Part shown: positions 6,654-63,427 of the stretch, one piece after another
Numbering within the stretch: the stretch's first letter is position 1
Layout of the letters: each line of letters begins with the position of its first letter
Sequence record: OV876907
DNA: 64,000 nt
From: Escherichia phage UGJNEcP3
Direction: 5' to 3' (one strand)
Notes under the pieces: generated by a model
Seen by the model: only the letters and a program-made list of their open reading frames with translations
Told to the model about the DNA's origin: nothing
The model's database searches: none
Program-made: the position numbers and the translations under genes

Positions 6654-6815
6654 TCATTCGTTTTCGGATTTTTCTTTACGCTTTTTGGATGGGATTTGTT
6701 CAGGCCCTTTGTTGACGACTGCACCTGAGGTAGTTCCGGAGGCAATATTAGATGGGTTTCCACCTGCATCACCTGCGACCATATCTTCGTTCATAACTTC
6801 TTTAAAAGATTTCAT
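6654..6815 (-). CDS. small hypothetical protein (53 aa)
   Basis: ATG 6815 preceded by AGGAG and minus-strand TATAAATA (6829-6836); below ORF-track size cut-off. Confidence 0.3.
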   Translation of the reverse strand: MKSFKEVMNEDMVAGDAGGNPSNIASGTTSGAVVNKGPEQIPSKKRKEKSENE

Positions 6816-14526: not shown

Positions 14527-14897
14527 GGATGATAGGCCTTATAACTATCAAGAGTTCCTTCGCGAACCATTTCTTTAAAGTGGTCAGGACGAATTGCTCG
14601 GTCATCGATGATAAAAGTATAACTCGGCTTGTGTGTAAGCAAATTGTGATATTTCAATCCAATTTTTTCAAGGTTCTTAACCAATGCAGGAACTACTTCA
14701 ACCAAGATTCGGCCTGGGCCGCATGAAGTCATACCACGGGCAGTGAACAATGTAATCTCATGACCTTCATCGTACAGCTTATTAATCATGGACACCATTT
14801 CGGTGTCCGGTTTAAAGTTTTCATAATCACGGTCATCTTGCCAGTGAGTAATGGTATTATCGATGTCAAAGCACAAATGCATTAAATTTTCTTCCAT
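14523..14897 (-). CDS. HAD-superfamily phosphatase-like protein
   Basis: N-terminal motif I LCFDIDNTIT (DxDxT); 124 aa. Confidence 0.5.
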   Translation of the reverse strand: MEENLMHLCFDIDNTITHWQDDRDYENFKPDTEMVSMINKLYDEGHEITLFTARGMTSCGPGRILVEVVPALVKNLEKIGLKYHNLLTHKPSYTFIIDDRAIRPDHFKEMVREGTLDSYKAYHP

Positions 14898-16555: not shown

Positions 16556-16615
16556 TATCTGTTCCTCAAGTGAATGTAGGTACATTATACACTATTTTTA
16601 ATAAATTGGTATTGC

Positions 16616-17116
16616 TTAAATCTTATCTTTACCGATTTCAATACACTGTTCTATTGCCGCCGGTACTTTGGTCTTGAGCTTATCGATTTGTTTCTTATAA
16701 TCACGAGCTTTACCGAAGCTCTCGGTTTCGAGCATTTCGTAATAACGAGCCTCGTGGATGGAAATCTGTAGATTGATATGGTTTACGCACATCGCATACA
16801 GTTTCTGCTTTTTGTACAAATCATCTTGGCGCTTCATTTCTGCCTGGTGTTTGGCTAGTACCGCTTCACGCTTAGACTCTTGTTCACGTTGGAATTCGAT
16901 TTCCCTTTGAGCATATTTTGCACAGTTATTACCACATTGATTATTAGCTCGGGTATACACAAGTCCAGAACCGGCACGGAATTTCATTTCGCCATCGAAT
17001 TGTTTCTGTTCAGCTGCGATACGAGCTTTACCAACTTCATCGGCTGAAACTGCATCACCATATTGGACCGCACAACCTGATAGGAGCATACTCATTGCGA
17101 TAATTAACTTTTTCAT
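16616..17116 (-). CDS. lipoprotein (signal MKKLIIAMSMLLSGC)
   Basis: lipobox LSGC; coiled-coil-rich mature part. Confidence 0.5.
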   Translation of the reverse strand: MKKLIIAMSMLLSGCAVQYGDAVSADEVGKARIAAEQKQFDGEMKFRAGSGLVYTRANNQCGNNCAKYAQREIEFQREQESKREAVLAKHQAEMKRQDDLYKKQKLYAMCVNHINLQISIHEARYYEMLETESFGKARDYKKQIDKLKTKVPAAIEQCIEIGKDKI

Positions 17117-46959: not shown

Positions 46960-47174
46960 TTTACTTCCTCATCAGATGCAATATCATATTCTACAAAACG
47001 AAGGCCATCGTATCCACCACTAACAGAGATATACGTAGTCGGGTAAACAATTTCTTTACCGTTCCATTGGCCACCGTCCCAACACTCCATAAAGCCTTGT
47101 TCACCCTGTTCGTGGAACCAGTCAACAAACATCTTCAGAGCTTCATCAGAGCCTTCAATTGTCAATTTAGACAT
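46956..47174 (-). CDS. hypothetical protein (72 aa)
   Basis: ORF. Confidence 0.4.
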   Translation of the reverse strand: MSKLTIEGSDEALKMFVDWFHEQGEQGFMECWDGGQWNGKEIVYPTTYISVSGGYDGLRFVEYDIASDEEVK

Positions 47175-47987: not shown

Positions 47988-48147
47988 AATGGTCTCTTAG
48001 TTGTGGGGCCGTTCCTTGGCACATAATTCAACCATGTATCCGAATGTAAACCCCTTACCGCACTCGGGCTCGACCTTATTACAGGTAGGGAAAGGTCCAT
48101 CACTCAGAGGACGCGACGTTCATGAGGAGAGGGTCGGTTTGCCTTTA

Positions 48148-48447
48148 TTAGAAAGAACCAGAACCTCTAATTGTGTTCTGGCGACCTTTATTTTCTAATT
48201 CGGAGTGGTCGATTTCATATGCTTGTGCTACGCCAAAGGCCTTTTTAACTTTAGCTAAAGAACCTTTAGATGTAACAATATTAAAAGTATTACCTTTGGT
48301 AAAATCAACAAAATCGACTTGTACGCCCTGTTTACCGAGGCTTGCTACAATAGCATCAACATATTCTTGGTCTAAATTGCCTTGAACTCCAATTTGAAAT
48401 GCTTTAGGAGCTTTGGCTTCTGTGATAAATTCTTGATAAGTTTTCAT
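48148..48447 (-). CDS. internal-protein-like capsid cargo (CTS MKTYQEFITEA)
   Basis: N-terminal capsid-targeting sequence shared with T4 IPI/IPII/IPIII. Confidence 0.55.
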   Translation of the reverse strand: MKTYQEFITEAKAPKAFQIGVQGNLDQEYVDAIVASLGKQGVQVDFVDFTKGNTFNIVTSKGSLAKVKKAFGVAQAYEIDHSELENKGRQNTIRGSGSF

Positions 48448-48490
48448 TGTTATTCCTTAAGTTGATAGAAGTATTCTATCACGGATTTAA

Positions 48491-48907
48491 TTAAGCGTAA
48501 ATAGCCTTGCCATAATGTTTGTACCAGGTAGGACGCTGTGCAATTTTTTCATCCAAACGGGTCTGAGATATAGCAATAGAAGCTTCGTGTGGAGTATAGT
48601 CACCACGGAATTCCTGAGGAATGTCACTAATGTCCTGGACAGTAGTGTCCTTGATATTAAAACCACGTTTTAAACATTCGGCTATAAGCTCAATTTGTCG
48701 CTTACGTAAAAATTCAAGCTTATCGTAAAAGAATGTAACATGGCCTGTGCCAAGGATAAAAGTAGGACTGATTTTGAAATCACGGACACGTTTACCATTA
48801 GCAACATGCTTACGAACTGCACCGAAAACACGTGGTAATTCACGGTACTCGGCCATTAAGTGTTGGTCAGCCAATTCAGATACTAAGGTAAGGTTGATAC
48901 GAGTCAT
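48491..48907 (-). CDS. denV: endonuclease V (pyrimidine-dimer DNA glycosylase DenV)
   Basis: [35 protein letters not shown]... near-identical to T4 DenV as recalled; start at second ATG (48907). Confidence 0.9.
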
Positions 48908-48967
48908 TTTAGTGTTCTCCATGTTTGTATGAGAACACTATATCACAACTATCGTAAAAATAAACCG

Positions 48968-49270
48968 TTATTTACCTTTAATTGCTTTAGCTGCTTCGGT
49001 AGCCGCTTGCTGAAGGTCATCCATAGACATACCGAATTTAGAAGCAAAGTTATCAATTTTCTTTTCGACAGAATTCAAAGGCTTGGCCTGTTTACCTTCA
49101 TTAGCGCCAGGGAGAGCGAGAATACGCTCTTTCTCAATATAAAGGCTTACAAGTTTCTTACGGTCTTTATCTGGCAAATCATGAAATGAATGGGCCTTTT
49201 TATTTACGGCGGCTTCTAATTTACCTGCAGTTACGCGGGCTTCAGTGATAAATTCTTGATAGGTTTTCAT
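48968..49270 (-). CDS. internal protein (IPII-like), CTS MKTYQEFITEA
   Basis: CTS; 100 aa; position between denV and e. Confidence 0.6.
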   Translation of the reverse strand: MKTYQEFITEARVTAGKLEAAVNKKAHSFHDLPDKDRKKLVSLYIEKERILALPGANEGKQAKPLNSVEKKIDNFASKFGMSMDDLQQAATEAAKAIKGK

Positions 49271-49311
49271 ATGTTTCCTTTAAAGGTAAATAGGTCTAAG
49301 TAATCTCTTTA

Positions 49312-49908
49312 TTAATTACCACGGGCTGCATTAGCAACGGCGTAAGCGTACTGAATATTAGCGTCTTTAAACGTACCTTTAGAGGTATCTATTTCTGCCT
49401 TAAAGCCGCCTTTAGCCATAACATCAGCAAATTCTTTACGGAAAGTCATTGCATCAAGACCTTTCCATGTTGATTTGTGCTTGGCAAATTCAAGACCAGC
49501 GAAGTTAACTGCTTTAGCCAATTTATTATCAATAGTCCATTTACCTGCTTTAGGTACAAATACCGGACCTTTCTGTTTAGAGAACAGTTTTAAATTCCAG
49601 CGACGAAGGTCACCGTCAGCTTTAACAAAAGCTGCGTCCAAGTTACTAGCAACAACATCTTGGATATGGGCAAATTTAAGTCCATCAGCTTCAATATTTA
49701 GGTCGTTACGCCAGCGAAGTCCTTCCCAGGCGAAAGCTTTAAAGTCGGAAGCTTTTGTAGCCAAGTACCGTTCAATAGGAGCTGTTTTAGCGTCAAAACC
49801 GTTTCCTGGGTTGTCAACGCCGTTTCCTTTGTAAGTCCACTCATCTTTATTAATGCCTTGGACCTTTCCTACAGAAGCTTCGGCGATAAATTCTTTATAC
49901 GTTTTCAT
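49312..49908 (-). CDS. internal protein (IPIII-like), CTS MKTYKEFIAEA
   Basis: CTS; 198 aa basic protein. Confidence 0.6.
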   Translation of the reverse strand: MKTYKEFIAEASVGKVQGINKDEWTYKGNGVDNPGNGFDAKTAPIERYLATKASDFKAFAWEGLRWRNDLNIEADGLKFAHIQDVVASNLDAAFVKADGDLRRWNLKLFSKQKGPVFVPKAGKWTIDNKLAKAVNFAGLEFAKHKSTWKGLDAMTFRKEFADVMAKGGFKAEIDTSKGTFKDANIQYAYAVANAARGN

Positions 49909-49990
49909 ACGGGTTCCTTAAAGGTAAATATTTTAATTGGTCTGTTCAAGTAACTGTAGATATACTATCACAATTCTAGGAGATGTAAAC

Positions 49991-50389
49991 TTATTTGTAG
50001 GTTTTCATCCAATTCTTGAACAAAGCCGCGACGTCTTTCTCTTTAACGTTCAGTTTAACATCCAACATTTTACCACCCGCTGCTCTTGTTTGGCGAATCT
50101 TAGCAGTACCGGTTTCGCCATTCCACTCAACATAATACTGTCCAGTGTTCATTGCAATACCATCGCCGTAGTCTTCGTTTTTAGAAGTGGTGAAGGCCAG
50201 CTTCATAGTCTTAGAGACACGAGCCTGCATGCCTGTCTGAAGAGCATTACGAACGCGAATAACCTGAGGAGTGGCCTGGGTCAGGTTCTCATTCAGTTCT
50301 TCAGTGAACTCTTCAGATTCAAACATAGCCAAAAGTTCTTTAGATGCAGGAATTACATTCTCTGCGATAAATTCATTATAAGTTTTCAT
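49991..50389 (-). CDS. internal-protein-like cargo, [13 protein letters not shown]
   Basis: CTS; 132 aa. Confidence 0.55.
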
Positions 50390-50870
50390 ATGCTTTCCAA
50401 GTACCTGTTTTAAATGTAGAAATCACGCGCTTAGCACGATTAGGAGTTTGTCTATACCAACGAGATTGGGCCAGGTTAACTGCCGCATCGTCCCAACGTT
50501 TCTGTTGGAGCATACGTAAAGAGTTAGTGAACCCGGCTACACCTGCTTCACCCATCTGGAAGACCATGTTAATTAAAGCACAACGACGAACTTCGTCTAA
50601 TACATCATAAACAGGTTTCAATTTAGGATTACGCAGAATAGCTCTACGAGCATTTTCAACCGATCGATTAAAGAGTTGCTCGGCTTCAGCCATAGTAATA
50701 CGACCATTACAAACTCGGCCCATAAGCTTATCAAGTTCAGCACGAGCAACATCTTTAGATGGGTTCTTGGTAACTAACTGGCCAATACCAATAGTCCAAT
50801 AACCTTCGGTGTCTTTATAAAGATTTAAATCAAGACCTTCGTCTTGACGCAACATATCAAAAATATCCAT
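50376..50870 (-). CDS. e: lysozyme (endolysin e)
   Basis: 164 aa; ...[20 protein letters not shown]...[22 protein letters not shown]...[10 protein letters not shown]... matches T4 lysozyme as recalled. Confidence 0.9.
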
Positions 50871-50900
50871 AATACCTCCTGAGTATAGGAGGTATTTATA

Positions 50901-51350
50901 TCAAAAGAGCGAATCTAAAACCTTAAACATCGACGGGCCCATGACATATTCCCATTGCGGACGTTTAATCAAGGCAAAAGCATCAAATTCAGGAATAGTA
51001 CGACCATCAGGGAACGTATGGTAAGCTGTACATTTGCAATCCTTGAACTGCTCGTGTTCCACAGGCACTGTATATAAGAACAGATGTAGATTCTTATTGC
51101 TTGAATATTTGAACTCACCTAGGTCTTTCAGGAATGCAGGATCGTATGCTGTGAATCCAATCTCTTCTTCGGTTTCGCGCATTGCCGCTTGAATAGGCTC
51201 TTCGCCTGGTTCGACATGACCCTTAGGAATGTCCCATTTATGACGCATGTTCTCTGGATTACGAGAGCCTGTTACACGGCCCATGACCAGTTCTTTATCA
51301 ACGGTCATGAATAAAATACCTGCCGATAATTCCTTAGCTTTCTTACTCAT
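50901..51350 (-). CDS. nudE: Nudix hydrolase (NudE-like)
   Basis: Nudix box GHVEPGEEPIQAAMRETEEEIG; internal ATG 51350 preferred over track start. Confidence 0.7.
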   Translation of the reverse strand: MSKKAKELSAGILFMTVDKELVMGRVTGSRNPENMRHKWDIPKGHVEPGEEPIQAAMRETEEEIGFTAYDPAFLKDLGEFKYSSNKNLHLFLYTVPVEHEQFKDCKCTAYHTFPDGRTIPEFDAFALIKRPQWEYVMGPSMFKVLDSLF

Positions 51351-51579
51351 CGTCTCGTTCCCATGATTGTTTAAAGATATCTCGTATAATAATTTCAACA
51401 CATGTTTCTGTTGACGGGCTTTCACTATCAGATATTTGGACCATATAATCAGAAATAGGTCGGAACATATCCAAGTCACTTTCTAAATCTTCTTTGATTT
51501 TCTCTTCTGATGTTCCGGTGTCATAGGAATACAGATAAGAATCACATGACTCAGATTTAATATAAATTGCAATACTCAT
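51343..51579 (-). CDS. hypothetical acidic protein (78 aa)
   Basis: ORF; RBS embedded in upstream gene tail. Confidence 0.4.
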   Translation of the reverse strand: MSIAIYIKSESCDSYLYSYDTGTSEEKIKEDLESDLDMFRPISDYMVQISDSESPSTETCVEIIIRDIFKQSWERDDE

Positions 51580-52163
51580 TTACGGCATTCCTTAATAAAA
51601 GAGTTTAATGTATTTTTCTTAGTGATATCGTCATATACCTTTTTAACTTTAGAAATACGAAAAGGTACTTCGATAACAGAGGTCCATAAAAATGATGCGA
51701 TAAGACCTAAGATAGCAGCAGACATCGCTGAAGCGAATACACAAATAGGCAGGTCATTATCTGTTGTCAGGAAAAACCCTAGGAGTGGGAAAAATAATAT
51801 ACCCATCCAAACATAGAATCTAGAACTCACCAATTTGTCGTATTCATCACTCCATGCACGGAAGCCGTATTTTTTGCTATAACAAATCAATGGGTCTGGA
51901 GTCTGTTCTTTATGTGGTTCCGCTTGCCAGCCGTTTACGATATAGCCCATTTTATATTCCTCAATTAAAAGCTGTTTCATTTCGGCAGTACAACCTGACC
52001 AATCTATTGTACTGGCTGAAATTCCTTCATCGCCGTCATCGATATTTCGCCAGGACTTTTTAATAATCATAGTCTCACCACTTGGGATAATAATTCCAGC
52101 ATTTTCCGACCGACGGATGAAGTTTGTGTCAATACCCATACAACCGGGTTCATAAAGGGCCAT
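51576..52163 (-). CDS. membrane protein (195 aa)
   Basis: hydrophobic segments; C-terminal FIKECRK overlaps downstream RBS. Confidence 0.45.
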   Translation of the reverse strand: MALYEPGCMGIDTNFIRRSENAGIIIPSGETMIIKKSWRNIDDGDEGISASTIDWSGCTAEMKQLLIEEYKMGYIVNGWQAEPHKEQTPDPLICYSKKYGFRAWSDEYDKLVSSRFYVWMGILFFPLLGFFLTTDNDLPICVFASAMSAAILGLIASFLWTSVIEVPFRISKVKKVYDDITKKNTLNSFIKECRK

Positions 52164-52852
52164 TACCAGCCCTCCATAGGGAATTCCAGATATACTTGAG
52201 CATTAACGCGGATTTCATTTGTAATCTTTTTAACACGGTCTGTATTACGAGACACACGACCAAACCAGCGCCACCCGTTACTTACTGCACGAGAACCTGT
52301 ATGCCATGTCTGCCAATCAAACTGGAGCAACGTGCGGTCAGGAGCATCCCACTTGGTTAATTCATTGGACTCAATTTTTTCCAGAACTTCTTTATGCCAC
52401 TGGCGATAGATAAGTTCGCCTTCAGGAATCTGACTAAATTGAGCAGTTCCGGTTGCAAAATGAGTAGGACACACATCAGCGTTAACAAGACCAAGAATAT
52501 GTTCAGAATGGTATCGAGGATTATCATAATCAGGTTGCCCTGCGGTAATAAAGTGTTGACCCACCGGAATATCCGGGCGTGGTACATCATCATGGTGGAA
52601 GCCTGGAATTGCAGGGTACCAGCCAGGCATTAACATATGTACACGGGAATCAAATACAATATCAGGGCCACATTGCCAATCTTCAGGCAGGTTTTCAATA
52701 AAGCTACGAGTAATAGGACCGCCGTGTTTATGAGCAAAATAAGCATCGCAATTAAAGAACATAGGCTCATTTTTAATCATATCATTATTGATATCTTGAG
52801 CAAAACCACCGACTGCACGAGCTTGAGAATTAAAAGTTTTCGGGCCGTTCAT
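52163..52852 (-). CDS. hypothetical protein (229 aa), His/Asp-rich
   Basis: ORF; HHDD...H cluster could be a metal site (speculative). Confidence 0.45.
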   Translation of the reverse strand: MNGPKTFNSQARAVGGFAQDINNDMIKNEPMFFNCDAYFAHKHGGPITRSFIENLPEDWQCGPDIVFDSRVHMLMPGWYPAIPGFHHDDVPRPDIPVGQHFITAGQPDYDNPRYHSEHILGLVNADVCPTHFATGTAQFSQIPEGELIYRQWHKEVLEKIESNELTKWDAPDRTLLQFDWQTWHTGSRAVSNGWRWFGRVSRNTDRVKKITNEIRVNAQVYLEFPMEGW

Positions 52853-52866
52853 AATATTTTCCTCAA

Positions 52867-53079
52867 TTACTTTTTGTTGAAAAAGTACATTTTACCTTTA
52901 GGAGATAAGGATACACGAAGTGCGTTACCAATACCAACTGAACATTTAACCAGGTCAGCAGATTTCAATTCACCAAATGCTTGACGAAGGTCACCGTCAC
53001 GAGTGTTAACCATCAGACATTTAGCACCAGCTGCACGAACTTCGTTTAACATGTTGATTGCTTGGTTAGAAAGTTTCAT
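52867..53079 (-). CDS. hypothetical protein (70 aa from second ATG)
   Basis: ATGGAGAATAAAATG leader; promoter module 53117-53145 upstream. Confidence 0.4.
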   Translation of the reverse strand: MKLSNQAINMLNEVRAAGAKCLMVNTRDGDLRQAFGELKSADLVKCSVGIGNALRVSLSPKGKMYFFNKK

Positions 53080-53157
53080 TTTATTCTCCATTTCACTCTG
53101 TTGTTTTGATAGGTCTATAGTATCACACCTATAGACCTTGTATACTGTTTTATGCAA

Positions 53158-54117
53158 TTATTTTTCGAAAGGACGAATTAAATGATGGTTATCTTGGAAC
53201 CGCTTGATGTAGTCATTTTCACCTAGGGTCTTATACATGTTCACTACCGAGTTATAATTCTCGTATGCGTATTCGCGGAACCAACCTGAAGTGATTGAGG
53301 TGCACACTTTCTCAAGAGCCATATAGAAACTTAATGACGGCGAAATATTAAAGTCATTAGGAACCTGTGAACGTTCTAGTGCCAGGACACAAGTTTCTTC
53401 ATACACACCGGCCAATTTAATAGCTTCAGGCAAAGCTTCAAACTTCTCACGAGAGGTCATGACTTCAGAACCATCCTTCATATAAAAGGTATATGCAGGG
53501 CGCCCTGCCAATGCTACTGCTTCGTGGATGGAGTCATGGTCCAGCGTATAAATGGTATCATTAAAGAATGATGATTTGTTAACGTCTAATTTAGGGTGAG
53601 AATAGCTCAACGTTTCTTTTTGACGTTGCAACATAATTTCCTGGAGTTCTTCGTTCAGGGTCACGCCTTTATTACGAAGGTATTTGATGTGGGACATAGT
53701 TTTCAAGAAGAACGGATTATTCTTAAGGAAACGATGAGAGGTTTTGATAGCCAGACAGATATCAGGGGTTGCCCAATAGAAACCTGTAAGACGGTCCTTT
53801 TTAATATGATTTTCAGCATATTTCAGGAGACGATAGCTTGAGGTGTAGTCTTCATCTTGGAGCTCACCGGTAATTTCTCGTACATTAGTCAGGGCACGGA
53901 CGATATAAGCTTCGAAATAGGTTTCTTTACCATTATGCATACATTTGAAAGCCTGAACATCAGGATTGTCAACGTGTACATGGGCGCCGAACATCCGAGC
54001 TTTAAAGTGGTTCCATGAGCCTTGGTCGGCAATGAAATCCCAATCAGAATTTTCGATATACTTATTTTCAATCAGACCTGCGTGGTGCAGTGCACGAGAA
54101 CCAATAACTAGCATCAT
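53158..54117 (-). CDS. hypothetical protein (319 aa from internal ATG)
   Basis: ATG 54117 with SD GAGGAAAA; track start further upstream. Confidence 0.45.
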   Translation of the reverse strand: MMLVIGSRALHHAGLIENKYIENSDWDFIADQGSWNHFKARMFGAHVHVDNPDVQAFKCMHNGKETYFEAYIVRALTNVREITGELQDEDYTSSYRLLKYAENHIKKDRLTGFYWATPDICLAIKTSHRFLKNNPFFLKTMSHIKYLRNKGVTLNEELQEIMLQRQKETLSYSHPKLDVNKSSFFNDTIYTLDHDSIHEAVALAGRPAYTFYMKDGSEVMTSREKFEALPEAIKLAGVYEETCVLALERSQVPNDFNISPSLSFYMALEKVCTSITSGWFREYAYENYNSVVNMYKTLGENDYIKRFQDNHHLIRPFEK

Positions 54118-54136
54118 AATATTTTCCTCAGTAAAC

Positions 54137-54376
54137 TTAAATTTCGGCAACGTAAGTATTATGTAATTCCCACATATCATTGGAATTACTCTCAACGATA
54201 GGAATTATCTCATTAGAGATTTCTTCTGCATAAGGGTCATTGATACAGTGAGCATCTTCAAAACGAACACCGTAATCAGACTTCTTATAAGAGAAGCCAT
54301 AAATCTTTTTAAACTTGGCACGAGTAATGCGTACCGGTTCATTAGACTTATCGGACATCGGGGCGTAATACCACAT
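54137..54376 (-). CDS. hypothetical protein (79 aa)
   Basis: SD GAGGAG. Confidence 0.4.
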   Translation of the reverse strand: MWYYAPMSDKSNEPVRITRAKFKKIYGFSYKKSDYGVRFEDAHCINDPYAEEISNEIIPIVESNSNDMWELHNTYVAEI

Positions 54377-54419
54377 ATGTACTCCTCATGTTTGTGTAAG
54401 GTAATAGTAACACGTATTT

Positions 54420-54770
54420 TTAGAGTTGTACATCACTTCTGCAATATTCTAAAAATAATTTATCGTTGTCTACTGTATCCCAACGACGCCAAGATGGATT
54501 CCAGACCAGAGCGTTGTCACCACAATCATTGAGCTTAAAATGGTCGTAGTACATAGCTATATGTCTAGTTTCGTCACCAGAGAACCCCAGTATAGGCTCA
54601 CCATGGGTGTGATACATATGATGGTGCATTGAGAGGTCGCATTTGTAAAACATCTCACGTTTACCACGAACGAACAAGAAGGCCTGTCCATTCATATAGA
54701 ATTCTTTATTTGTTTTCAAAAGATATTTGAATACTGAATCTTTATGCATAAGTCCTCCTACCACATCCAT
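54420..54770 (-). CDS. hypothetical protein (116 aa)
   Basis: ORF. Confidence 0.4.
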   Translation of the reverse strand: MDVVGGLMHKDSVFKYLLKTNKEFYMNGQAFLFVRGKREMFYKCDLSMHHHMYHTHGEPILGFSGDETRHIAMYYDHFKLNDCGDNALVWNPSWRRWDTVDNDKLFLEYCRSDVQL

Positions 54771-54779
54771 GTGGTTAAA

Positions 54780-55007
54780 TTATTTTCCTAACGAAACACG
54801 AGTAGGTTTTTTACCAAAATAGTCTTCGTAAGAACCATCTAAACGGCCTGCTTTAGACCGACAATACGAATCATACTTTTTGTAATAAGTCATCTCGGTA
54901 TTATAACGTGGGTGTCTATCAGCCATAATAATACTTAGTGGCCAACCTTTGGCATAATCGCGAAGACCATTTATTTTACGAATGTATCGTTTTTTCAATT
55001 TTAGCAT
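54780..55007 (-). CDS. hypothetical protein (75 aa)
   Basis: ORF. Confidence 0.4.
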   Translation of the reverse strand: MLKLKKRYIRKINGLRDYAKGWPLSIIMADRHPRYNTEMTYYKKYDSYCRSKAGRLDGSYEDYFGKKPTRVSLGK

Positions 55008-55225
55008 GAGCTTGGGTACCAGATTTTACCATCGGCCTGAGCAACGAAGGTGCGACCAGCTTCTTCACCATAACAAGAGCTATTCAGCCAATCTTCGAGA
55101 CGAACTTCACCGTCATAATCATCGAGCTCAACACCGAAATCCTGGGCAGAAGCCATATCTTTTACTTTCTTATACAGTGCAGCCAGTTCAAGAGCAGCTT
55201 TTTCTAATTCATTAATATCAGACAT
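55001..55225 (-). CDS. small protein, C-terminal tail family member 5 (...WYPSSC)
   Basis: ATG 55225 with SD AAGGAA; tail related to W-x-S-S-x-x-C family. Confidence 0.4.
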   Translation of the reverse strand: MSDINELEKAALELAALYKKVKDMASAQDFGVELDDYDGEVRLEDWLNSSCYGEEAGRTFVAQADGKIWYPSSC

Positions 55226-55235
55226 TTTTATTTCC

Positions 55236-55448
55236 TTAGCAAGACATAGAAGAAGTAAACCAGAAACCATCACCATCAGGAATGCCGTAATCATCACGGA
55301 CCCATTCGTAATCATCATATTCCGGGTTCTTTGGAGAAATGTATTGTCCACGACCAGAAACATGGAACTCTTCACCTGTTTCGTCAGCCACGGACTGGCC
55401 TTTACGTACTAATTCACGGATTTGTTTTTCAATTTCATCAATAGTCAT
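55236..55448 (-). CDS. small protein, C-terminal tail family member 4 (...WFTSSMSC)
   Basis: tandem paralog array. Confidence 0.45.
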   Translation of the reverse strand: MTIDEIEKQIRELVRKGQSVADETGEEFHVSGRGQYISPKNPEYDDYEWVRDDYGIPDGDGFWFTSSMSC

Positions 55449-55457
55449 TTTATTACC

Positions 55458-55655
55458 TTAGCATTCGTAAGAGGAGGACACCCAAGAGGTACCACTAATA
55501 GTAATACAACCGTTATAAAGCGTGATATGTCGTTCTAGGTCACGAACACCATCGATATAGATATCAGCTTCTTCGCGTTCTTCTTTACAAATCTGGATAA
55601 CGTTTTCAATAGCTGCGGCTGCAGTACGGATTGCACAATCTAGTTCACGAGACAT
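55458..55655 (-). CDS. small protein, C-terminal tail family member 3 (...WVSSSYEC)
   Basis: tandem paralog array. Confidence 0.45.
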   Translation of the reverse strand: MSRELDCAIRTAAAAIENVIQICKEEREEADIYIDGVRDLERHITLYNGCITISGTSWVSSSYEC

Positions 55656-55664
55656 AATAATTCC

Positions 55665-55946
55665 TTAACATTCAGAAGAAGAGGATACCCATCCACCATT
55701 TTCTAGGCTGGTAGTGTAATCATGTTGGTTTACAATAGCGTACTGAGCTTCACCGTATTCTTCCCAGTGGGCAAGGTCGGCTTTCAGGGCGCCAGGAGAA
55801 TAATAGTCACCGCCCATACCGCGAGCAGGGTATATATTAAAATGAGTCTCATATTTGTTAGCAATTTCCTCAGCACGACGAATAGCTTTATGAATATCAT
55901 TTACTGCTTCAGCCAGCTCTTTATTTTTACGGTAATCATTCATCAT
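55665..55946 (-). CDS. small protein, C-terminal tail family member 2 (...WVSSSSEC)
   Basis: tandem paralog array. Confidence 0.45.
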   Translation of the reverse strand: MMNDYRKNKELAEAVNDIHKAIRRAEEIANKYETHFNIYPARGMGGDYYSPGALKADLAHWEEYGEAQYAIVNQHDYTTSLENGGWVSSSSEC

Positions 55947-55955
55947 AGAATTTCC

Positions 55956-56246
55956 TTAGCACATTGCTGAAGAGGAGACCCAAGCACCAACTGTAACGAC
56001 ACCGTTTTCAACTTCACCGCCATTGTTTTCAATTTCATCTTTAAACCACTGGGAGCATTCATAACCGACAGGATAATATGTACGGCCTGAACCATAATCA
56101 CCGGTACCGAATTGAATACCGTACTTATCGGCAATAGCTTCGCATTCATGTTCGATGGTATCTACTTTATTCAGAAGAGCATAGATAGCCTTTTCTGCAG
56201 ACAGCGCGCTGTTGTATTCAGGGATTTCAATTTCAATTTTATTCAT
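55956..56246 (-). CDS. small protein, C-terminal tail family member 1 (...WVSSSAMC)
   Basis: tandem paralog array. Confidence 0.45.
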   Translation of the reverse strand: MNKIEIEIPEYNSALSAEKAIYALLNKVDTIEHECEAIADKYGIQFGTGDYGSGRTYYPVGYECSQWFKDEIENNGGEVENGVVTVGAWVSSSAMC

Positions 56247-56596
56247 GATTTACATTCCTTAATAAAGGTTTCAAGGTCATTACGTTTAGTTTGTTTTACA
56301 TACTCATTATAATTAGCCATAGCTAAAGCATATCTCTTTTTACGTGGCTTGTTTATTTTATTAGTTTGGGCAATATCAAAGACCCATGGGATAAAAAATC
56401 CTATTAAAGCCGGAACCCAAATCCACGCGAGGCTCATATCTTCAAACGGATGGCGAGGCATACCATTAATAATCCCACCGACAAGAAATCCAATTATCCC
56501 TGCAGTCATACTAGTAGCAATGCCGAGGAATAATGAAATAGAGATATCGTAATCTGCTAATGCGTAACCAGGGTCGGTTTTACTAGGCTTATGCAT
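56243..56596 (-). CDS. membrane protein (117 aa from internal ATG)
   Basis: hydrophobic core; ATG 56596 with SD AGAGG. Confidence 0.4.
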   Translation of the reverse strand: MHKPSKTDPGYALADYDISISLFLGIATSMTAGIIGFLVGGIINGMPRHPFEDMSLAWIWVPALIGFFIPWVFDIAQTNKINKPRKKRYALAMANYNEYVKQTKRNDLETFIKECKS

Positions 56597-57125
56597 TTTG
56601 AACCTCTTTAGCGTATTCGCGACATTCAGCAATAAAACGATTAAGCTTACGTTGTTGTTTACGACTTTCTAATGTGTACTCATTAGACAAAATAATAAGC
56701 TCATCTTTATCGTAATTTTTAATATCAGAGTAAGATGGGCGACGGTCAACCATTCCAAATACATCACCATTTTCTAAAGCTACATAGCATACTAAATGGT
56801 AATCATCGTCTGCCATATTAAGAAGCACACAATCAGCGCTCTCGTTTAAAGAATATACTGAATAACGTAGTCCAGCGAATTCCACTCGTTGAATAGCCAG
56901 ATTTACGTCAATAATTTCCAAAGCATCTTCAAAAGAAAGGTCTTCAGCTAAAGCAAAAATAAAAGGTAATTTGGTAGTATCGCCACGGCTAGATGTTCTG
57001 CTTAAGAAATCGTTTGAATAGCCTAGGTCTTGGCGAATTCTATAAAGAACTGAATTGGTTTCATGGGAAAGACCACTATTTTTAAACCAATCAATATTTG
57101 ATATCAGGTCGTCATATAAACTCAT
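56589..57125 (-). CDS. hypothetical protein (178 aa)
   Basis: ORF. Confidence 0.45.
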   Translation of the reverse strand: MSLYDDLISNIDWFKNSGLSHETNSVLYRIRQDLGYSNDFLSRTSSRGDTTKLPFIFALAEDLSFEDALEIIDVNLAIQRVEFAGLRYSVYSLNESADCVLLNMADDDYHLVCYVALENGDVFGMVDRRPSYSDIKNYDKDELIILSNEYTLESRKQQRKLNRFIAECREYAKEVQNA

Positions 57126-57173
57126 AATATTCTCCTCTCCTCCAAATAGGGAGACCGAAGTCTCCCGGTAACA

Positions 57174-57767
57174 TTACTTAAGTGAATTAATGTAGTCTTC
57201 GATATCAGCAGAAGTCGTATCCATTCCAACTTGCGGGCCTTTAAACGTTTCTACGCGCATCAGGGTGTCTTCGATATCAATCTTGGTCAGTGCAGCAATT
57301 TCAACAACATCGTCGGCAGTAGCAATACCAAGGGCAGCCATATTACGAGTTTCACGAATGTACTCAAGCTTAACCGCTAGTTCCTGGCGAGAGTCATCAA
57401 GTTCCTTGACCTTAAGCTTAATTTCATTACGCATTTCAACATAATCATCGGCTTTCTTACGAAGTTGAGTAGCCGTACGACGATAAAGGAGGCCGAGTTT
57501 AGCATGTACCTGGACATCGGCACCTTCTTTAATCAGTTTACGAATTTCGCGTTCTTTGGAACTAGCCAGTTGGTCCTTTTCGTTAGCGAGTTCACGAATA
57601 CGTTTTTCTTCATTCACAGACTTAACATGGGCAGTCTGGAGCTCAGTGATTTTATCAATCAAGGTAGAAGCAGCTTTAGTATACTGGTCTTCAATTGACA
57701 GGTTCTGAGCCATTGCGGTACCCAGTTTAGAACGAATGAATTCAACGAGTTTCTTTAAAGTGTTCAT
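57174..57767 (-). CDS. coiled-coil protein (197 aa), possibly PspA/IM30-like
   Basis: heptad-rich, charge-alternating sequence; family assignment speculative. Confidence 0.4.
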
Positions 57768-57845
57768 AGTATTTCCTTCAGTTGGTTAACGTTTTGTAAT
57801 CCATGAGGACATTATACCCTGTCCTCTGAGGGTTGTAAACATTTT

Positions 57846-58244
57846 TTATTTCATTTTTGCGAGGCAAATTTCATTGGCTTCCCATTGAGCTTGCTTAATA
57901 ATAGCTTTGGATACAGGAGCCCTTTGGCCATAAGTTTTTGACGTTGAGAGAACAATACATTTGTTTGCTTCATTATGCCAGCCCCATGATTTTTCGCCAT
58001 GGGTGCCTTTAACTACAGCTGACACCTCAACAGAGCAACCACCATCAGAAATCTTGGTTTCGACAATCCATTCATTTCTCTCAACAGCTTCAATTTCTAA
58101 TCTAGTTTTTTCTTCATACATCGCGGCCCAATCAGTTTTTGCCAAGTTGAAAGTAAGAGCTTTCTCTAATTCTTTGGCATATTTTTGTTGTTCAGGTGTT
58201 AATGAATTATACAACTCTTGCATTTCTTTATCTTCGATATTCAT
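57846..58244 (-). CDS. hypothetical protein (132 aa)
   Basis: ORF. Confidence 0.45.
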   Translation of the reverse strand: MNIEDKEMQELYNSLTPEQQKYAKELEKALTFNLAKTDWAAMYEEKTRLEIEAVERNEWIVETKISDGGCSVEVSAVVKGTHGEKSWGWHNEANKCIVLSTSKTYGQRAPVSKAIIKQAQWEANEICLAKMK

Positions 58245-58302
58245 TATGTTCTCCTCAAATTATGGGCTCATAATATCTTAATCATGAGCCCATGTAAACG
58301 TT

Positions 58303-58581
58303 TTATTTCATATTATTGAAATAATTTTCTGCATCAAAATCATTACCATGGTAAACTTTGGTAGACGATTTGGCGTAACCTTCAGCTGAGAACATATTAA
58401 TCACAACTTTAATTGTATACCACTGTCCATCTTCATTACCCATTACTGCATAGGTTTCATACACCGGGTGTTCAGGACCGATAACTTTAATATCGTTAAC
58501 TGTAGCACCAAATTCTTCCGGAACACATTTCATAAAGAAATTAAACACTTCACCATAATTATCCATTTTACTCTCCTTCAC
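58303..58581 (-). CDS. hypothetical protein (92 aa)
   Basis: ORF; promoter module 58602-58630 upstream. Confidence 0.45.
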   Translation of the reverse strand: MKESKMDNYGEVFNFFMKCVPEEFGATVNDIKVIGPEHPVYETYAVMGNEDGQWYTIKVVINMFSAEGYAKSSTKVYHGNDFDAENYFNNMK

Positions 58582-58653
58582 ACTGTTGTTTTGATAGGTC
58601 TATAGTATCATGTTCTACGAAAGAGTAAACATCTTTTTTAAACTTTTTAGAAA

Positions 58654-58682
58654 CAAAAAAGGCCCAACCTTTCGGAAGGGCC
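58654..58682 (-). terminator. intrinsic terminator
   Basis: GGCCC...GGGCC hairpin followed by U7 on minus strand. Confidence 0.6.
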
Positions 58683-58687
58683 TAGAA

Positions 58688-59242
58688 TCAGTTCTTGTAG
58701 AACCGGAACGGGTTTACATGGAAGGCTAACATGGCCTTAGGGATTTTACGAGACAAAAGGCTCTTAAGCTTCCAACCACAGTACACGCGAAGGTAAAAGG
58801 TAATCCCACCAACCTTAAGATATGGAACTGAAGCAAATACACCCCAGGCGTCGTCATTCCACATCCATAACCACCCGTGATGAGCTTTATCAGGAGAACC
58901 GGATTCAACGTCGGGATTACCACGATAATGGAATTCTGAGCTACAATCACGACCGAGTTTATGGTAAGCAAAGTTATAAGCTTTATTTCGCCATAGCCAA
59001 GCTACTCTCTGGAGATAAACACCACCTGGCATTTTCCTGATTTTAGCCCAACGTTTAATGTGACCTTTGTCACCGTCAATTGGATTATCGTATGTCATCA
59101 TCCAATCAAAGCCATAAGGCAATTTACCGGTCTTTTTATTGTGGAAAGGAACTACAAAAGGCGCAAGGATAACAGCCAGAACCATAGAGATAAAATCCAG
59201 TGGAACCAACAGAACCCAACTCAAATATTTTAAAAGTTTCAT
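58688..59242 (-). CDS. membrane-anchored protein (184 aa)
   Basis: N-terminal TM segment; ATG 59242 preferred over TTG at 59263. Confidence 0.45.
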   Translation of the reverse strand: MKLLKYLSWVLLVPLDFISMVLAVILAPFVVPFHNKKTGKLPYGFDWMMTYDNPIDGDKGHIKRWAKIRKMPGGVYLQRVAWLWRNKAYNFAYHKLGRDCSSEFHYRGNPDVESGSPDKAHHGWLWMWNDDAWGVFASVPYLKVGGITFYLRVYCGWKLKSLLSRKIPKAMLAFHVNPFRFYKN

Positions 59243-59286
59243 ATATTTCTCTAATTTAACCAAAAAAGCACCAGATGGGGCTTTCG

Positions 59287-59751
59287 TTATTTGATTTGTT
59301 TAGCGGACCAGATACGGTCTTTGATGATTTTCTGAATATCTTCAACATACTCTAAGTCGTGAGCATGCGGATTATCTTTGAAGCTATGTGCTCGTGCCAG
59401 TTTCTGGCCTTCTGTTTTGATTACTAAAAGCTCTTTAAGAATTGCTTCATACTTAGAAATAATTCCTTTGGCGATATTTTTTTCTTGAGCGGCTTTAGGG
59501 TCCGCTTTTGTAGCAGGTGCTTTACCTGTAGCTTTCTGGAACAATTCACCTGATGCAGCTAGGCTTTTAAAAACTCGGCTAACAGTATTAGCATTAGTAA
59601 AACCTTCGGCTTTAAAATCTCTAATAAAACGGAAACGTTCTTCATCAGAGGCGTCTTTGTAAGAATATTTACCTGCTTGAATTGCTGCAATCGCAGCGGC
59701 TTTTACATCTGAACTAGATTGTTCAGTCAAAAATTCATTGTAAGTTTTCAT
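59287..59751 (-). CDS. internal-protein-like cargo, CTS MKTYNEFLTE
   Basis: CTS; 154 aa. Confidence 0.55.
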   Translation of the reverse strand: MKTYNEFLTEQSSSDVKAAAIAAIQAGKYSYKDASDEERFRFIRDFKAEGFTNANTVSRVFKSLAASGELFQKATGKAPATKADPKAAQEKNIAKGIISKYEAILKELLVIKTEGQKLARAHSFKDNPHAHDLEYVEDIQKIIKDRIWSAKQIK

Positions 59752-59791
59752 TATTATTTCCTAAGTTAATTAACTTATCTATTTATTATGC

Positions 59792-59820
59792 CAAAAAGCC
59801 CCAACCTTTCGGAAGGGGCT
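59792..59820 (-). terminator. intrinsic terminator downstream of tRNA/small-RNA cluster
   Basis: AGCCCC...GGGGCU hairpin followed by U-run on minus strand. Confidence 0.6.
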
Positions 59821-59861
59821 ATGCCTTGCGGCAACCTTGTCGGGGTTCCACCTGCTAGGCA

Positions 59862-60201
59862 AGTGTTTGTACGAAACGCCGGGATTCGAACCCGGTTATT
59901 AAGTAGTTGACGCTACTCAATATTTTTAAAAGGCCATATCTCGACCATATCCGAACGTTCCGTCAAAAACGCTACTCGGCTTACGGCAAAGATATTTCCT
60001 CGAATCGATAATTCGGTGCGCCGTTTCTGCTGTGATGTAAGGGGGCGTTAACAGATCGTAAAGATTTGTTAATGCCAGTCCTTACTCAGGGAACATCAGT
60101 CCGACGACTTACCGGTAGCGACCCGGTTTCTTGTTTGTTGCGCCGGTGAATGCTGGTAATCAGTCTTCATACGACGGCTTGACTATATAATAGTCTTCAT
60201 T
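59862..60201 (-). ncRNA. candidate stable small RNA(s) with tRNA-like 3' T-arm
   Basis: 340 nt with no ORF between tRNA-Arg and terminator; CCGGGTTCGAATCCCGG T-arm at 59880-59896 but no acceptor/anticodon fold; local hairpins; T4 has stable RNAs next to tRNA-Arg. Confidence 0.35.
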
Positions 60202-60276
60202 TGGTATCCCGCCCTGGGATCGAACCAGGACCGCAAACTTAGAAGGATCGTATGCTATCCATTACACCAGCGGGAC
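60202..60276 (-). tRNA. tRNA-Arg (anticodon TCT)
   Basis: 75 nt incl. encoded CCA; acceptor GTCCCGC/GCGGGAT, T-arm CCTGG-TTCGATC-CCAGG, anticodon loop CTTCTAA; folded by hand. Confidence 0.75.
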
Positions 60277-60281
60277 ATAGT

Positions 60282-60359
60282 TGGTGACCCGGACCAGATT
60301 TGAACTGGTAACCTTTCCCTTATGAGGGGACTGCTGCTAACCAATTGAGCTACAGGGCC
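60282..60359 (-). tRNA. tRNA with anticodon CAT (Met, or Ile if C34 is modified)
   Basis: 78 nt incl. encoded CCA; T-arm ACCAG-TTCAAAT-CTGGT; anticodon loop CTCATAA; acceptor stem with one mismatch; folded by hand. Confidence 0.65.
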
Positions 60360-60364
60360 TTAAT

Positions 60365-60631
60365 TTAAATTACAAATCCAGCAGGAGCATTATCATCTTT
60401 AGCCATGTGCTGAATTGTATGATAAGTCATTTCTTCAGGAGCAACCAGATAAGCCGCAACGTTAACTAGTGGAATTATTTTTGGTTTAGCGAACGTGCTA
60501 TCAGAAATTGCCATAAAGGGCTCGCCATCGGTCTCAACTTCACCAAATTGGCATTCATATGAAATAGAACAACGTTTGGTAGTTGTTGTCTTGGTTTTAG
60601 GGTCATAAAAAGCTAATTTCAATACTAACAT
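60365..60631 (-). CDS. hypothetical protein (88 aa)
   Basis: ATG 60631 with SD GAGGTG. Confidence 0.4.
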   Translation of the reverse strand: MLVLKLAFYDPKTKTTTTKRCSISYECQFGEVETDGEPFMAISDSTFAKPKIIPLVNVAAYLVAPEEMTYHTIQHMAKDDNAPAGFVI

Positions 60632-60760
60632 AAACACCTCAAATAAAATTAAGTAAAGTAAGTTTTATTAATAGACCTTGTCTATTATGAAAGGTTCTTT
60701 GAGGGAAGAACCTTTGGTAATAGAGGGTATTAATGATAGAGTAATAATATCACATAATTC

Positions 60761-61246
60761 TTAAAGCATATTAAGTGCTTTAACACTAGGTATTTGGATT
60801 TCTTCTTCAACGATGTACAGCTTAACATAAGAAATTACACGGATGAAATCGCCATCATATTCACAAGCCATACCAAGGAGCTCAGTAAGAGCTTCATTCA
60901 AGTAGTATGCTTCTTCATCGTCATTCAACAAGGCTTCTAAGTCTTGAATACCTAGGACCTTATCTAAAAATTCCGGAGTCAACTGGCCCGATTTTACACC
61001 AGATTCAATGTGAGCAATAACCAAATGCTTAACTACGCCCCAGTCTTCGTTACCACATTTATCCGGGCTGTTACAATGCGAACCATGGAAAAGTTCTAAG
61101 ATATATTTGTACTGTTGGATTTCCTGTTCTTCTACACCAAATACAGTCTGGGTTTTATAGTTATCACCATCATTTTCCCAGGTTTCGATTTCAAGAACAT
61201 AACCTTTAGGAATAACTTGTCCAAATTTAATATTCATTGCGGCCAC
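60761..61246 (-). CDS. hypothetical acidic protein (161 aa)
   Basis: ORF. Confidence 0.45.
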   Translation of the reverse strand: MAAMNIKFGQVIPKGYVLEIETWENDGDNYKTQTVFGVEEQEIQQYKYILELFHGSHCNSPDKCGNEDWGVVKHLVIAHIESGVKSGQLTPEFLDKVLGIQDLEALLNDDEEAYYLNEALTELLGMACEYDGDFIRVISYVKLYIVEEEIQIPSVKALNML

Positions 61247-61524
61247 ATATTAATGTAATCAAGTTTAATAGAAGCAATCTTCAAAGGATTTTTAAAGATG
61301 TCGTATTCGATCAATCCATTTTCAGTTGCGGTATAAAAAGTAAAGTTAACAGAATTATAACGATGGCTGTTAACTTTGAGTTTAACATCGCTTGAACTAC
61401 GGCCAATATTAACCTGTTGAACATCAAGCACAGCATCTTTGCCGTAATTTCGAATCAACAACTCGGCTGCAACCTGGTCTGAATTATAGCCGTTCTCCGG
61501 ATTAGTAACCTTAACGTATAGCAT
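61234..61524 (-). CDS. hypothetical protein (96 aa)
   Basis: ORF. Confidence 0.4.
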   Translation of the reverse strand: MLYVKVTNPENGYNSDQVAAELLIRNYGKDAVLDVQQVNIGRSSSDVKLKVNSHRYNSVNFTFYTATENGLIEYDIFKNPLKIASIKLDYINMWPQ

Positions 61525-61905
61525 TTAACCCTCGTCTACAATAGTGTGGGTATTGGCATTAACAATTTGCCACCAGTCAAAACGATTGGACCCATATTGA
61601 GGTGTATTCTCGTTTTCTTTAATGATATCACGTAGTTCATCTTCAGTAGCAGCTTTTGCGATTAAGTCGGCATAGCCGCCGCGAGGATAATAGTTATCAC
61701 CTGCGAAAAGTAAAAAGTTTGGTTTGATATTATTGAACTCTTCAAGAGTAATAACCGTTCCGTTTGGTTGAACAATATCTACATAACTATATCCTAATTT
61801 CTGAGCTTCGGAAACCGCTTCAAGCAGGGTATCATGGGCCCATCCAATTTGACAATCGGGTTTTTCGGATGGATTAGCTTGGTAGTCCGCATACACTTTA
61901 TACAT
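61525..61905 (-). CDS. hypothetical protein (126 aa from internal ATG)
   Basis: ATG 61905 with SD AAGGTGA. Confidence 0.4.
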   Translation of the reverse strand: MYKVYADYQANPSEKPDCQIGWAHDTLLEAVSEAQKLGYSYVDIVQPNGTVITLEEFNNIKPNFLLFAGDNYYPRGGYADLIAKAATEDELRDIIKENENTPQYGSNRFDWWQIVNANTHTIVDEG

Positions 61906-61906
61906 T

Positions 61907-62092
61907 TTACTCACCTTTAGAGATTTTATCCATAACAAAAGAGATTGAACCAATTAAAAATGCCACTACTAAAGAGATTATATTCTCGGAAGTTGAAAGC
62001 ATATCGAGCATGAATCCTGCAAACATACTAAAGCCAAAAGCAGTAACGGCGGCCAGTGCAGTAACATTTCTAATTAATTCACAACGTTTCAT
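61907..62092 (-). CDS. small membrane protein (61 aa)
   Basis: second ATG of conserved leader; hydrophobic. Confidence 0.4.
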   Translation of the reverse strand: MKRCELIRNVTALAAVTAFGFSMFAGFMLDMLSTSENIISLVVAFLIGSISFVMDKISKGE

Positions 62093-62160
62093 TTTATTCT
62101 CCAATCACTCATTTGTTTTGATAGGGCTATAGTATCATCACTAGAGCCCGTTGTAAACAA

Positions 62161-62433
62161 TTATTTTAGATAAATTGCATACTTTTTATAACCAGCCGTT
62201 TCGTGACGCAGTCCTTTTTCATTAGCAAAACGTTCAATATTGTTAATTTGATTCTGGTCGAGTTCTGAAGTATCAAAAACAAAAAAGTTTCGCTTATTGC
62301 CTAAAGTTACGTGATTAGTCAAATCAATGTTATAGAGATGATTTATATTATCAATCATAGTCTTAACAGATTTGTTAATTTTTACTTCTTCATTAAGAAT
62401 AGATTCAGCGATAAATTCTTGGTATGATTTCAT
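62161..62433 (-). CDS. internal-protein-like cargo, CTS MKSYQEFIAE
   Basis: CTS; in the ipI position. Confidence 0.55.
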   Translation of the reverse strand: MKSYQEFIAESILNEEVKINKSVKTMIDNINHLYNIDLTNHVTLGNKRNFFVFDTSELDQNQINNIERFANEKGLRHETAGYKKYAIYLK

Positions 62434-62434
62434 T

Positions 62435-62656
62435 TTATTCTACGCCCGCGGCTTTCAAAAGTTTTTTAAGATTGGCAGTGCCTTGAGCAGAAAATGTGAC
62501 CTTGCCGCCTTTTTCGCTGATGCTCCCAGTCAATTTAGCAAGTTTATCACTAGAGACTTTTTTAAAATCAGCCAATGTACCGTCAAAGGTTTTTGTAACA
62601 ACCGGCAGTTGGTCATGTTTTTTAGCTTCTGTAATAAATTCTTGATAAGCTTTCAT
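62435..62656 (-). CDS. internal-protein-like cargo, CTS MKAYQEFITEA
   Basis: CTS; 73 aa. Confidence 0.55.
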   Translation of the reverse strand: MKAYQEFITEAKKHDQLPVVTKTFDGTLADFKKVSSDKLAKLTGSISEKGGKVTFSAQGTANLKKLLKAAGVE

Positions 62657-62693
62657 TTTGATTTCCGTTTGGTTAGTTTGTTTTGATAGGTCT

Positions 62694-62722
62694 ATAGTAT
62701 CACGCCTATAGACCTTGTAAAC
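62694..62722 (-). promoter_or_regulatory. promoter-like element GTTTAC-N17-TACTAT with perfect 9-bp inverted repeat
   Basis: ggtctatag (62689-62697) / ctatagacc (62706-62714). Confidence 0.5.
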
Positions 62723-62734
62723 ACCTTTTTTAAA

Positions 62735-63427
<693 letters not shown>

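Follow-up and report, generated by a model that had tools for sequence, protein, structure and literature searches.

The seven genes described here lie on the minus strand of a 64,000-nt stretch of the genome of Escherichia phage UGJNEcP3 (OV876907; the whole stretch is referred to as the window), and their products share a 10-residue N-terminal leader matching the capsid targeting sequence (CTS) of the phage T4 internal proteins, followed by bodies that are unrelated to each other. We consider it likely that they are the polymorphic internal proteins (Ips) of a T4-like Dhakavirus, which would be packaged, cleaved and injected, and would most likely act as inhibitors of type IV restriction systems. 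This confirms the observation made in the initial annotation of the window, the basic interpretation of which is right, and restates established knowledge. A modest addition is that two CTS families, represented by genes D and E (the genes are lettered A to G from low to high window coordinate), have never been annotated as internal proteins in the records listed for them below.

A shared leader on seven unrelated proteins

All seven minus-strand open reading frames (ORFs) initially reported to start with MK[TSA]Y[QKN]EF[IL][AT]E were recovered as listed; the single coordinates given for them at that time were their low ends, i.e. the stop-codon side, and the start codons are at the high ends (Table 1). 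A six-frame search found no eighth copy of this motif in the window or in the entire 170,590-bp genome, which was rebuilt using record OV877765.1 (Escherichia phage UGJNEcP4, a Dhakavirus of the Tevenvirinae; the window corresponds to record positions 12639-76638, and window positions 48000-63000 are 100% identical to it), and the motif count was 0 in first-order Markov resamples of the window (n=200). Each motif copy stands at the very start of an ORF, and all of these ORFs have the same orientation as their neighbouring genes. Residues M1, K2, Y4, E6, F7 and E10 are invariant in all seven leaders, with variation at positions 3, 5 and 9, and with Ile at position 8 in six leaders and Leu in the remaining one; the leader of gene G, for example, is MKAYQEFITE. 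The codons used differ synonymously between the genes (ACT/ACC/ACG, TAT/TAC, ATC/ATT, GAA/GAG), which shows that the leader peptide is kept by selection and does not reflect recent duplication. A 53-aa ORF starting with MKSFKEVMNE (window 6654-6815, minus strand) was dismissed as a CTS look-alike, since its residues 7 and 8 are Val and Met; this ORF is a member of the unrelated family phrog_1823 and adjoins the primase gene, and the likeness was judged to be due to chance.

The CTS was defined on T4 IPIII, where ten residues are enough for packaging, foreign proteins included, and where genetic analysis assigned residues 4 and 7 to targeting and residues 8 and 10 to processing (Mullaney and Black 1996, as cited in PMC9026906); the gp21 prohead protease cuts after Glu (PMC9026906). 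The targeting determinants Y4 and F7 are present in 7/7 leaders, as is a gp21-type (I/L)-x-E site made up of Ile or Leu at position 8 and E10, and these residues support the assignment of all seven leaders to the CTS. It had been named the IPI/IPII/IPIII targeting sequence, of which the IPII/IPIII type stands, whereas the T4 IPI leader is different and has 19 residues (MKTFKEFTSTTTPVSTITE). The same genome (record positions 104609-106772) encodes gp21 (full-length Peptidase_S77 match, 342 bits), gp22 (T4_CASP, 301 bits) and a GP67 match (64 bits). The predicted mature forms of all seven proteins are basic (6.6-20.7 kDa, pI 7.98-9.85), and the P1' residues following Glu10 are, from A to G, A, A, A, N, Q, S and A.

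In the mechanism that we propose, the 10-residue CTS would direct each protein into the gp22 scaffolding core during prohead assembly, and gp21 would cut after Glu10, and in the gene D product probably also after an invariant L32-N-E34. The small basic mature proteins would then stay in the head with the DNA and be injected together with it, and in the new host would be active ahead of phage gene expression, most likely through stoichiometric inhibition of modification-dependent (type IV) nucleases. The products of B (Ip2) and C (Ip3) would be expected to block the GmrSD subtypes that are blocked by their T4 orthologues, and the repertoire would have been built by cassette exchange.

The bodies were indeed divergent, as all pairwise BLASTP comparisons gave E > 0.1 once the first 10 residues were removed. 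The seven genes match seven different PHROGs, and cross-family matches are confined to the first ~15-50 residues. The gene A product matches phrog_2667 'internal head protein' (E=7e-43), which is also its GenBank label, and was found by tblastn in 283 phage records (all family counts are from a database of 50,697 phage records), with 86% identity to VR5 'ip7' and 50% to T2/RB32 Ip7; its mature form is predicted at 9.5 kDa with a pI of 9.0. The product of B (phrog_7857, mature pI 9.7) shares 93% identity with T4 IPII along its entire 100 aa (E=4e-66), and that of C (phrog_5341) shares 87% identity with T4 IPIII along its entire 198 aa (E=2e-129). Gene F (phrog_7673, E=6.5e-56; 192 records; 81% identity to VR20/VR26 'ip9') starts 1 nt past the stop codon of gene G (phrog_8765, E=1.8e-24; 107 records; 85% identity to VR5 'ip8'; mature form 6.6 kDa, pI 9.85). 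Gene G occupies the T4 ipI slot between trna.4 and 57B, and BLASTP yields no alignment between its product and the mature body of T4 IPI. The GenBank labels of A, B, C, F and G are those of internal head or virion proteins. None of the seven proteins has a Pfam match passing the curated cut-offs, a PDB sequence search with A, B, C, F and G gave no relevant match, and literature searches under the names Ip4, Ip7, Ip8 and Ip9 returned only unrelated papers.

Table 1. CTS genes and putative expression signals, in window coordinates.
Feature	Position	Strand	Description
Gene A	48148..48447	-	99 aa, Ip7 family; CTS codons 48418-48447
Gene B	48968..49270	-	100 aa, T4 IPII (Ip2) orthologue; CTS codons 49241-49270
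Gene C	49312..49908	-	198 aa, T4 IPIII (Ip3) orthologue; CTS codons 49879-49908
Gene D	49991..50389	-	132 aa, unnamed CTS family, phrog_15461; CTS codons 50360-50389
Gene E	59287..59751	-	154 aa, unnamed CTS family, phrog_2280; CTS codons 59722-59751
Gene F	62161..62433	-	90 aa, Ip9 family; CTS codons 62404-62433
Gene G	62435..62656	-	73 aa, Ip8 family; CTS codons 62627-62656
Promoter-like site	48473..48501	-	upstream of A; TTTACG, 17-nt spacer, TG-TAGAAT; consensus match only
Early-type promoter-like site	49962..49989	-	upstream of C; orthologous to T4 ipIII upstream site
Canonical T4 late promoter box	50893..50900	-	upstream of e; TATAAATA
Terminator-like hairpin and late-promoter-like box	59780..59819	-	upstream of E; hairpin 59798-59819 with T-run, then AATAAATA at 59780-59787
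Early-type promoter-like site	62694..62721	-	upstream of G; GTTTACA ... TGATACTAT

Two families listed as hypothetical proteins

The families of D and E were found by tblastn in 49 and 511 phage records, respectively, and annotations were listed for 80 of these 560 records (40 of 49 for D and 40 of 511 for E). All listed homologues are labelled 'hypothetical' (40/40 for either family), and PHROGs gives 'unknown function' for both. With regard to D, residues M1, K2, Y4, E6, F7, I8 and E10 are kept in 17/17 clusters of homologues, as is a second (I/L)-x-E site (L32-x-E34-N35), whereas residues 11-30 are variable, or are deleted in the most distant members. The AlphaFold model of D has a pLDDT of 53.5, which is too poor for a fold search, and is disordered up to residue 37. 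We infer from this conservation and from the model that the D leader may be a longer propeptide that is cut twice, comparable to the leader of IPI with its 19 residues.

In the homologues of E the leader is retained, either as such or in variants of the same pattern, such as MKSYAQFLNE-AVLNE, MLKFNEFLAE, MLEYSEFLKE, MKFKEFLIE and MISFNEFV...LITE, and a profile search of 1.84 billion representatives gave 10 relatives, mostly short proteins with CTS-type leaders; these 10 include one chimeric fragment and one weak match to a PPR-repeat protein, and none of them indicates a function. Structure prediction, which the initial annotation had proposed for the mature domains, gave the poor model of D described above and a better one for E (pLDDT 72.9), which is all helical, with a three-helix N-terminal domain, a Pro/Ala/Lys linker and a helical hairpin. 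No informative neighbour was found for the E model, as Foldseek gave only non-significant helical bundles in PDB (best E=0.67) and only the uncharacterised family of E itself in BFVD. It can be speculated that D and E are genuine, overlooked injected proteins, and that E, which is present in about half of the sequenced T4-like coliphages, would mark a third, undescribed Ip locus and inhibit a defence beyond the Ip1-3 paradigm, but taken as a whole we think this rather unlikely. A candidate target for E would in that case be a type IV enzyme class recognising non-glucosyl cytosine hypermodifications.

Loci, cassette exchange and expression signals

The 15-kb stretch containing the seven genes is covered to at least 80% by just five phage records, and parts of it are common to hundreds, and thus the region is mosaic. 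Six of the seven genes are located in the two ip loci of T4 (the denV-e region and trna.4-57B), while E lies outside both, between rnaC and the e.8-side genes, at a third locus which also holds CTS genes in phages G4498 and Bas37. The ~300 nt between tRNA-Arg and E (window 59830-60140, minus strand) have ~93% identity to T4 rnaD and rnaC (species 2 and 1), with neither GenBank annotation nor an Rfam match, and relative to T4, gene E is inserted directly downstream of rnaC. Gene E is absent from T4 and also from JS10, which lacks B, F and G as well; the homologous region of JS10 contains four CTS genes, among them a D-type gene in the ipII slot. In the ipI locus of JS10 there is an unannotated ORF of 97 aa (14597-14890 of the compared stretch, minus strand; MKTYQEFIKE; phrog_27873, unknown function), which fills part of a 650-nt annotation gap and adds one more CTS family that carries no label. 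The gene order in Klebsiella phage CP-p-KP-21072 is e, D, IpII, denV, IpIII, Ip7.

The lysozyme gene e and gene D overlap by 14 nt, so that the first 14 nt of D (ATGAAAACTTATAA, window 50376-50389, minus strand) are also the last codons and stop codon of e in another frame, and G4498 has a different 93-aa CTS body following the same e-end junction. Similarly, the promoter, leader and CTS of the ipI locus are shared by four phages with four different bodies, i.e. T4 ipI, the 97-aa ORF of JS10, the Ip9 of G4498 and Bas37_0260. With different bodies in the same slots, the promoter-leader-CTS combination behaves as a constant 5' unit to which one body or another is joined, and unrelated bodies behind one CTS, with cassettes swapped in hot-spot loci, have been described previously (Repoila et al. 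1994, as cited in PMC3012670 and PMC9026906; PMC12373910).

The body of Ip9 is also found without a CTS, as a stand-alone 72-aa gene among the accessory genes of phage SHAK7858 (44.5 kb; 53% identity), and an Ip9-like C-terminal domain is present in a 755-aa Kuttervirus protein (36% identity). That the Ip9 body circulates without a CTS is in line with a scenario in which otherwise ordinary accessory proteins gain entry to the capsid through the CTS. The SHAK7858 gene (2507-2725 of the examined stretch) has its own promoter-like sequence, and its label 'internal head protein' is a homology transfer only, which is probably wrong for that phage. The Kuttervirus protein is encoded by gene 85 of Salmonella phage aagejoakim (473-2740 of the examined stretch), which adjoins structural genes; the protein starts with a stretch (MAIPSFLNFLEE-SKQ) that looks like a CTS/(L)-x-E propeptide, and this hints that Ackermannviridae may package related cargo.

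The presence of seven CTS genes had been taken initially as an expanded set compared with the three of T4. The count for T4 is indeed three, but T4 is at the low end: JS10 and Bas37 have four each, and in the same region of Tequatrovirus G4498 there are likewise seven CTS ORFs, one of which, at the third locus, encodes a 187-aa member of phrog_2280. A 32-nt CTS DNA probe matched 2,351 places in 1,025 phage records, with up to 6 per record (a lower bound), and the literature on T-even internal proteins mentions 'at least 10' Ips.

With regard to expression signals, the early-type promoters of C and G (GTTTAC...TGATA[GC]TAT) are the same as those of T4 ipIII and ipI. Overall, a scan of the region for sigma-70-type promoters gave 48 sites versus 43.8 expected from shuffled sequence, which is not above expectation, and therefore weight was given only to the sites that are orthologous to T4 ip promoters. 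On the minus strand between positions 47000 and 64000, the box upstream of e is the only exact copy of TATAAATA, and could serve as a late promoter for both e and the overlapping D. The Bas37 orthologue of E (bas37_0244) is preceded by the same hairpin as E, followed by an exact TATAAATA at -46.

Elsewhere in the window, positions 55001-56246 (minus strand) contain five tandem small paralogues of 65-96 aa (phrog_899 and phrog_4882, unknown function), each with a conserved W-x-(S/T/P)-S-S-x-x-C motif at the C-terminus (e.g. ...WVSSSSEC, ...WFTSSMSC and ...IWYPSSC).

Targets, DNA modification and comparison with known systems

In T4, IPI* is an inhibitor of GmrS/GmrD, and each of Ip1, Ip2 and Ip3 inhibits a GmrSD type of its own without cross-protection, the target of Ip2 being the fused GmrSD/BrxU of ECOR21 and that of Ip3 the two-gene GmrSD of ECOR17 (PMC12373910). 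IPIII is required on ECOR17, and a form of it that is made in the host and lacks the CTS is active (PMC9391042), and Bas37_0260, a CTS protein of phage KarlGJung, inhibits McrBC (bioRxiv 10.1101/2025.11.20.689424). The suggestion that some of the seven proteins may be anti-defence proteins is a reasonable inference from these examples, although the idea is not new (Rao and Black 2010; Silas et al. 2025, PMC12373910). Transfer of the Bas37_0260 target (gene located in MZ501089) to any of the seven proteins was rejected: only its first 10-19 residues align with them, and as its body is unrelated to theirs, the McrBC target is not transferable.

It had further been proposed that these proteins are matched to the different DNA modification of this phage. 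The known Ips bind the nuclease and do not recognise the modification. The gene-42 region (window 12405-17116, minus strand) encodes a ThyA homologue and a 557-aa nucleotidyltransferase/kinase fusion, as judged by domain matches, together with GenBank-annotated 'thymidylate kinase' and 'phosphoheptose isomerase' and a 297-aa unknown protein, and there is no alpha- or beta-glucosyltransferase among the GenBank annotations of the genome. An RB69-type arabinosyl-5-hydroxycytosine cluster is said to reach the Dhakaviruses (PMC13326640), and because the gene-42 cluster resembles the RB69-type pathway and no glucosyltransferase is annotated, the phage probably carries a non-glucosyl cytosine modification. 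The Ip repertoire is not visibly matched to it, since the glucosyl-hmC phage T4 has counterparts of B and C with 93% and 87% identity, the Ip7, Ip8, Ip9 and E families are common to Dhakavirus and Tequatrovirus, and RB69 has a T4-like IPI and its DNA is cut by GmrSD (PMC6024577); this part of the initial annotation was thus not borne out.

Several points weigh against the seven proteins being processed, injected inhibitors of type IV nucleases. The P1' residues of D (Asn) and E (Gln) are unlike the Ala or Ser of proven substrates, and searches for proteomic data on virions or for sequenced N-termini, be it of this phage or of the families of D and E, found none. As the sole exact late promoter in the region is upstream of e, late expression of most of the genes rests on the analogy with T4, and in the Pfam, PDB and Foldseek searches none of the bodies was linked to a known inhibitor by sequence or structure. 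Finally, ip4-10 gave no reproducible inhibition when tested against 15 GmrSD groups (PMC12373910), and the targets of Ip7, Ip8 and Ip9 may thus not be GmrSD. This last result also favours the historical T4 view, in which packaged internal proteins are mainly generic basic DNA counter-ions, or aids to packaging or ejection, and have no specific host targets; the basic mature forms (pI 8.0-9.85) agree with this, as do the ~1000 internal protein molecules embedded in the DNA of each T4 head. However, such a general role is at odds with the specific nucleases of Ip1, Ip2 and Ip3 and with the activity of host-expressed IPIII lacking its CTS, and leaves unexplained the unrelated bodies and their rapid presence/absence turnover among phages that are >90% identical, and we regard it as improbable.

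The absence of a GmrSD target for ip4-10 would also fit with injected effectors directed at targets outside type IV restriction, for instance other first-response defences or an Alt-like host takeover, and to this we give a modest chance. Targets are known for just four Ip families, and the genome encodes, outside the window (OV877765.1 124074-130337), three Alt-like ADP-ribosyltransferase paralogues in tandem, which shows investment in another kind of injected effector. T4 has a single Alt, which is packaged, processed by gp21 and injected. All four characterised Ips inhibit type IV systems, either GmrSD or McrBC, and this phage probably has heavily modified cytosines and would hence be a type IV substrate, both of which argue for type IV targets. 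For some of the seven, D and E in particular, it could be that the leader is a by-product of recombination through CTS-coding DNA, and that these proteins are cytoplasmic and unpackaged. The start of D inside the 3' end of e, a junction that may stem from recombination, the Ip9 body lacking a CTS in an unrelated 44.5-kb phage and the Asn and Gln at P1' are consistent with this, but a relic would decay, whereas the leader is invariant at its functional positions in the 17 D clusters, relatives of E down to the ~25-bit level keep it with compensating variants (e.g. MLKFNEFLAE and MISFNEFV...LITE), and ten CTS residues package foreign proteins in T4. A by-product origin of the leader therefore seems very unlikely to us, and packaged, injected Ips with probable type IV targets remain our preferred explanation.

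In a new host, injected Ips act ahead of all other phage molecules and set the host range against modification-dependent restriction, which makes the Ip repertoire relevant to the choice of therapeutic T4-like phages. The principle and several targets have already been published, and conceptually this locus adds little; what it yields are five candidate inhibitors outside the families with known targets (Ip7, Ip8, Ip9, D and E), including two CTS families spread over 49 and 511 phage records that are 'hypothetical' in every annotation listed.

Compared with T4 IPI-III, the type of leader, the residues at positions 4, 7, 8 and 10, the denV-e and trna.4-57B slots and the early-type promoters are alike, whereas there are seven genes here versus three in T4, the 19-residue IPI leader has a different sequence, and there is no IPI homologue here, its slot being taken by Ip8-type and Ip9-type genes. 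Within the Ip4-Ip10 series of the T-even phages, A corresponds to Ip7, G to Ip8 and F to Ip9, while none of the listed records names or annotates D (phrog_15461) or E (phrog_2280) as an Ip, and the locus of E beside rnaC is a third one, the ip genes of T4 itself having been described in two. Bas37_0260 starts with MKTYQEFIAE, which is the same type of leader, and shares with G the promoter and leader of the ipI locus; its body is unrelated to all seven. The giant phages SPN3US and phiKZ also carry head-internal cargo that is cleaved after Glu by a prohead protease, and the Dar proteins of phage P1 are likewise head-internal anti-restriction cargo delivered with the DNA. In these systems the propeptides have more than 100 residues or the mode of incorporation is another one, and neither the giant phages nor P1 use the 10-residue tag of T4.

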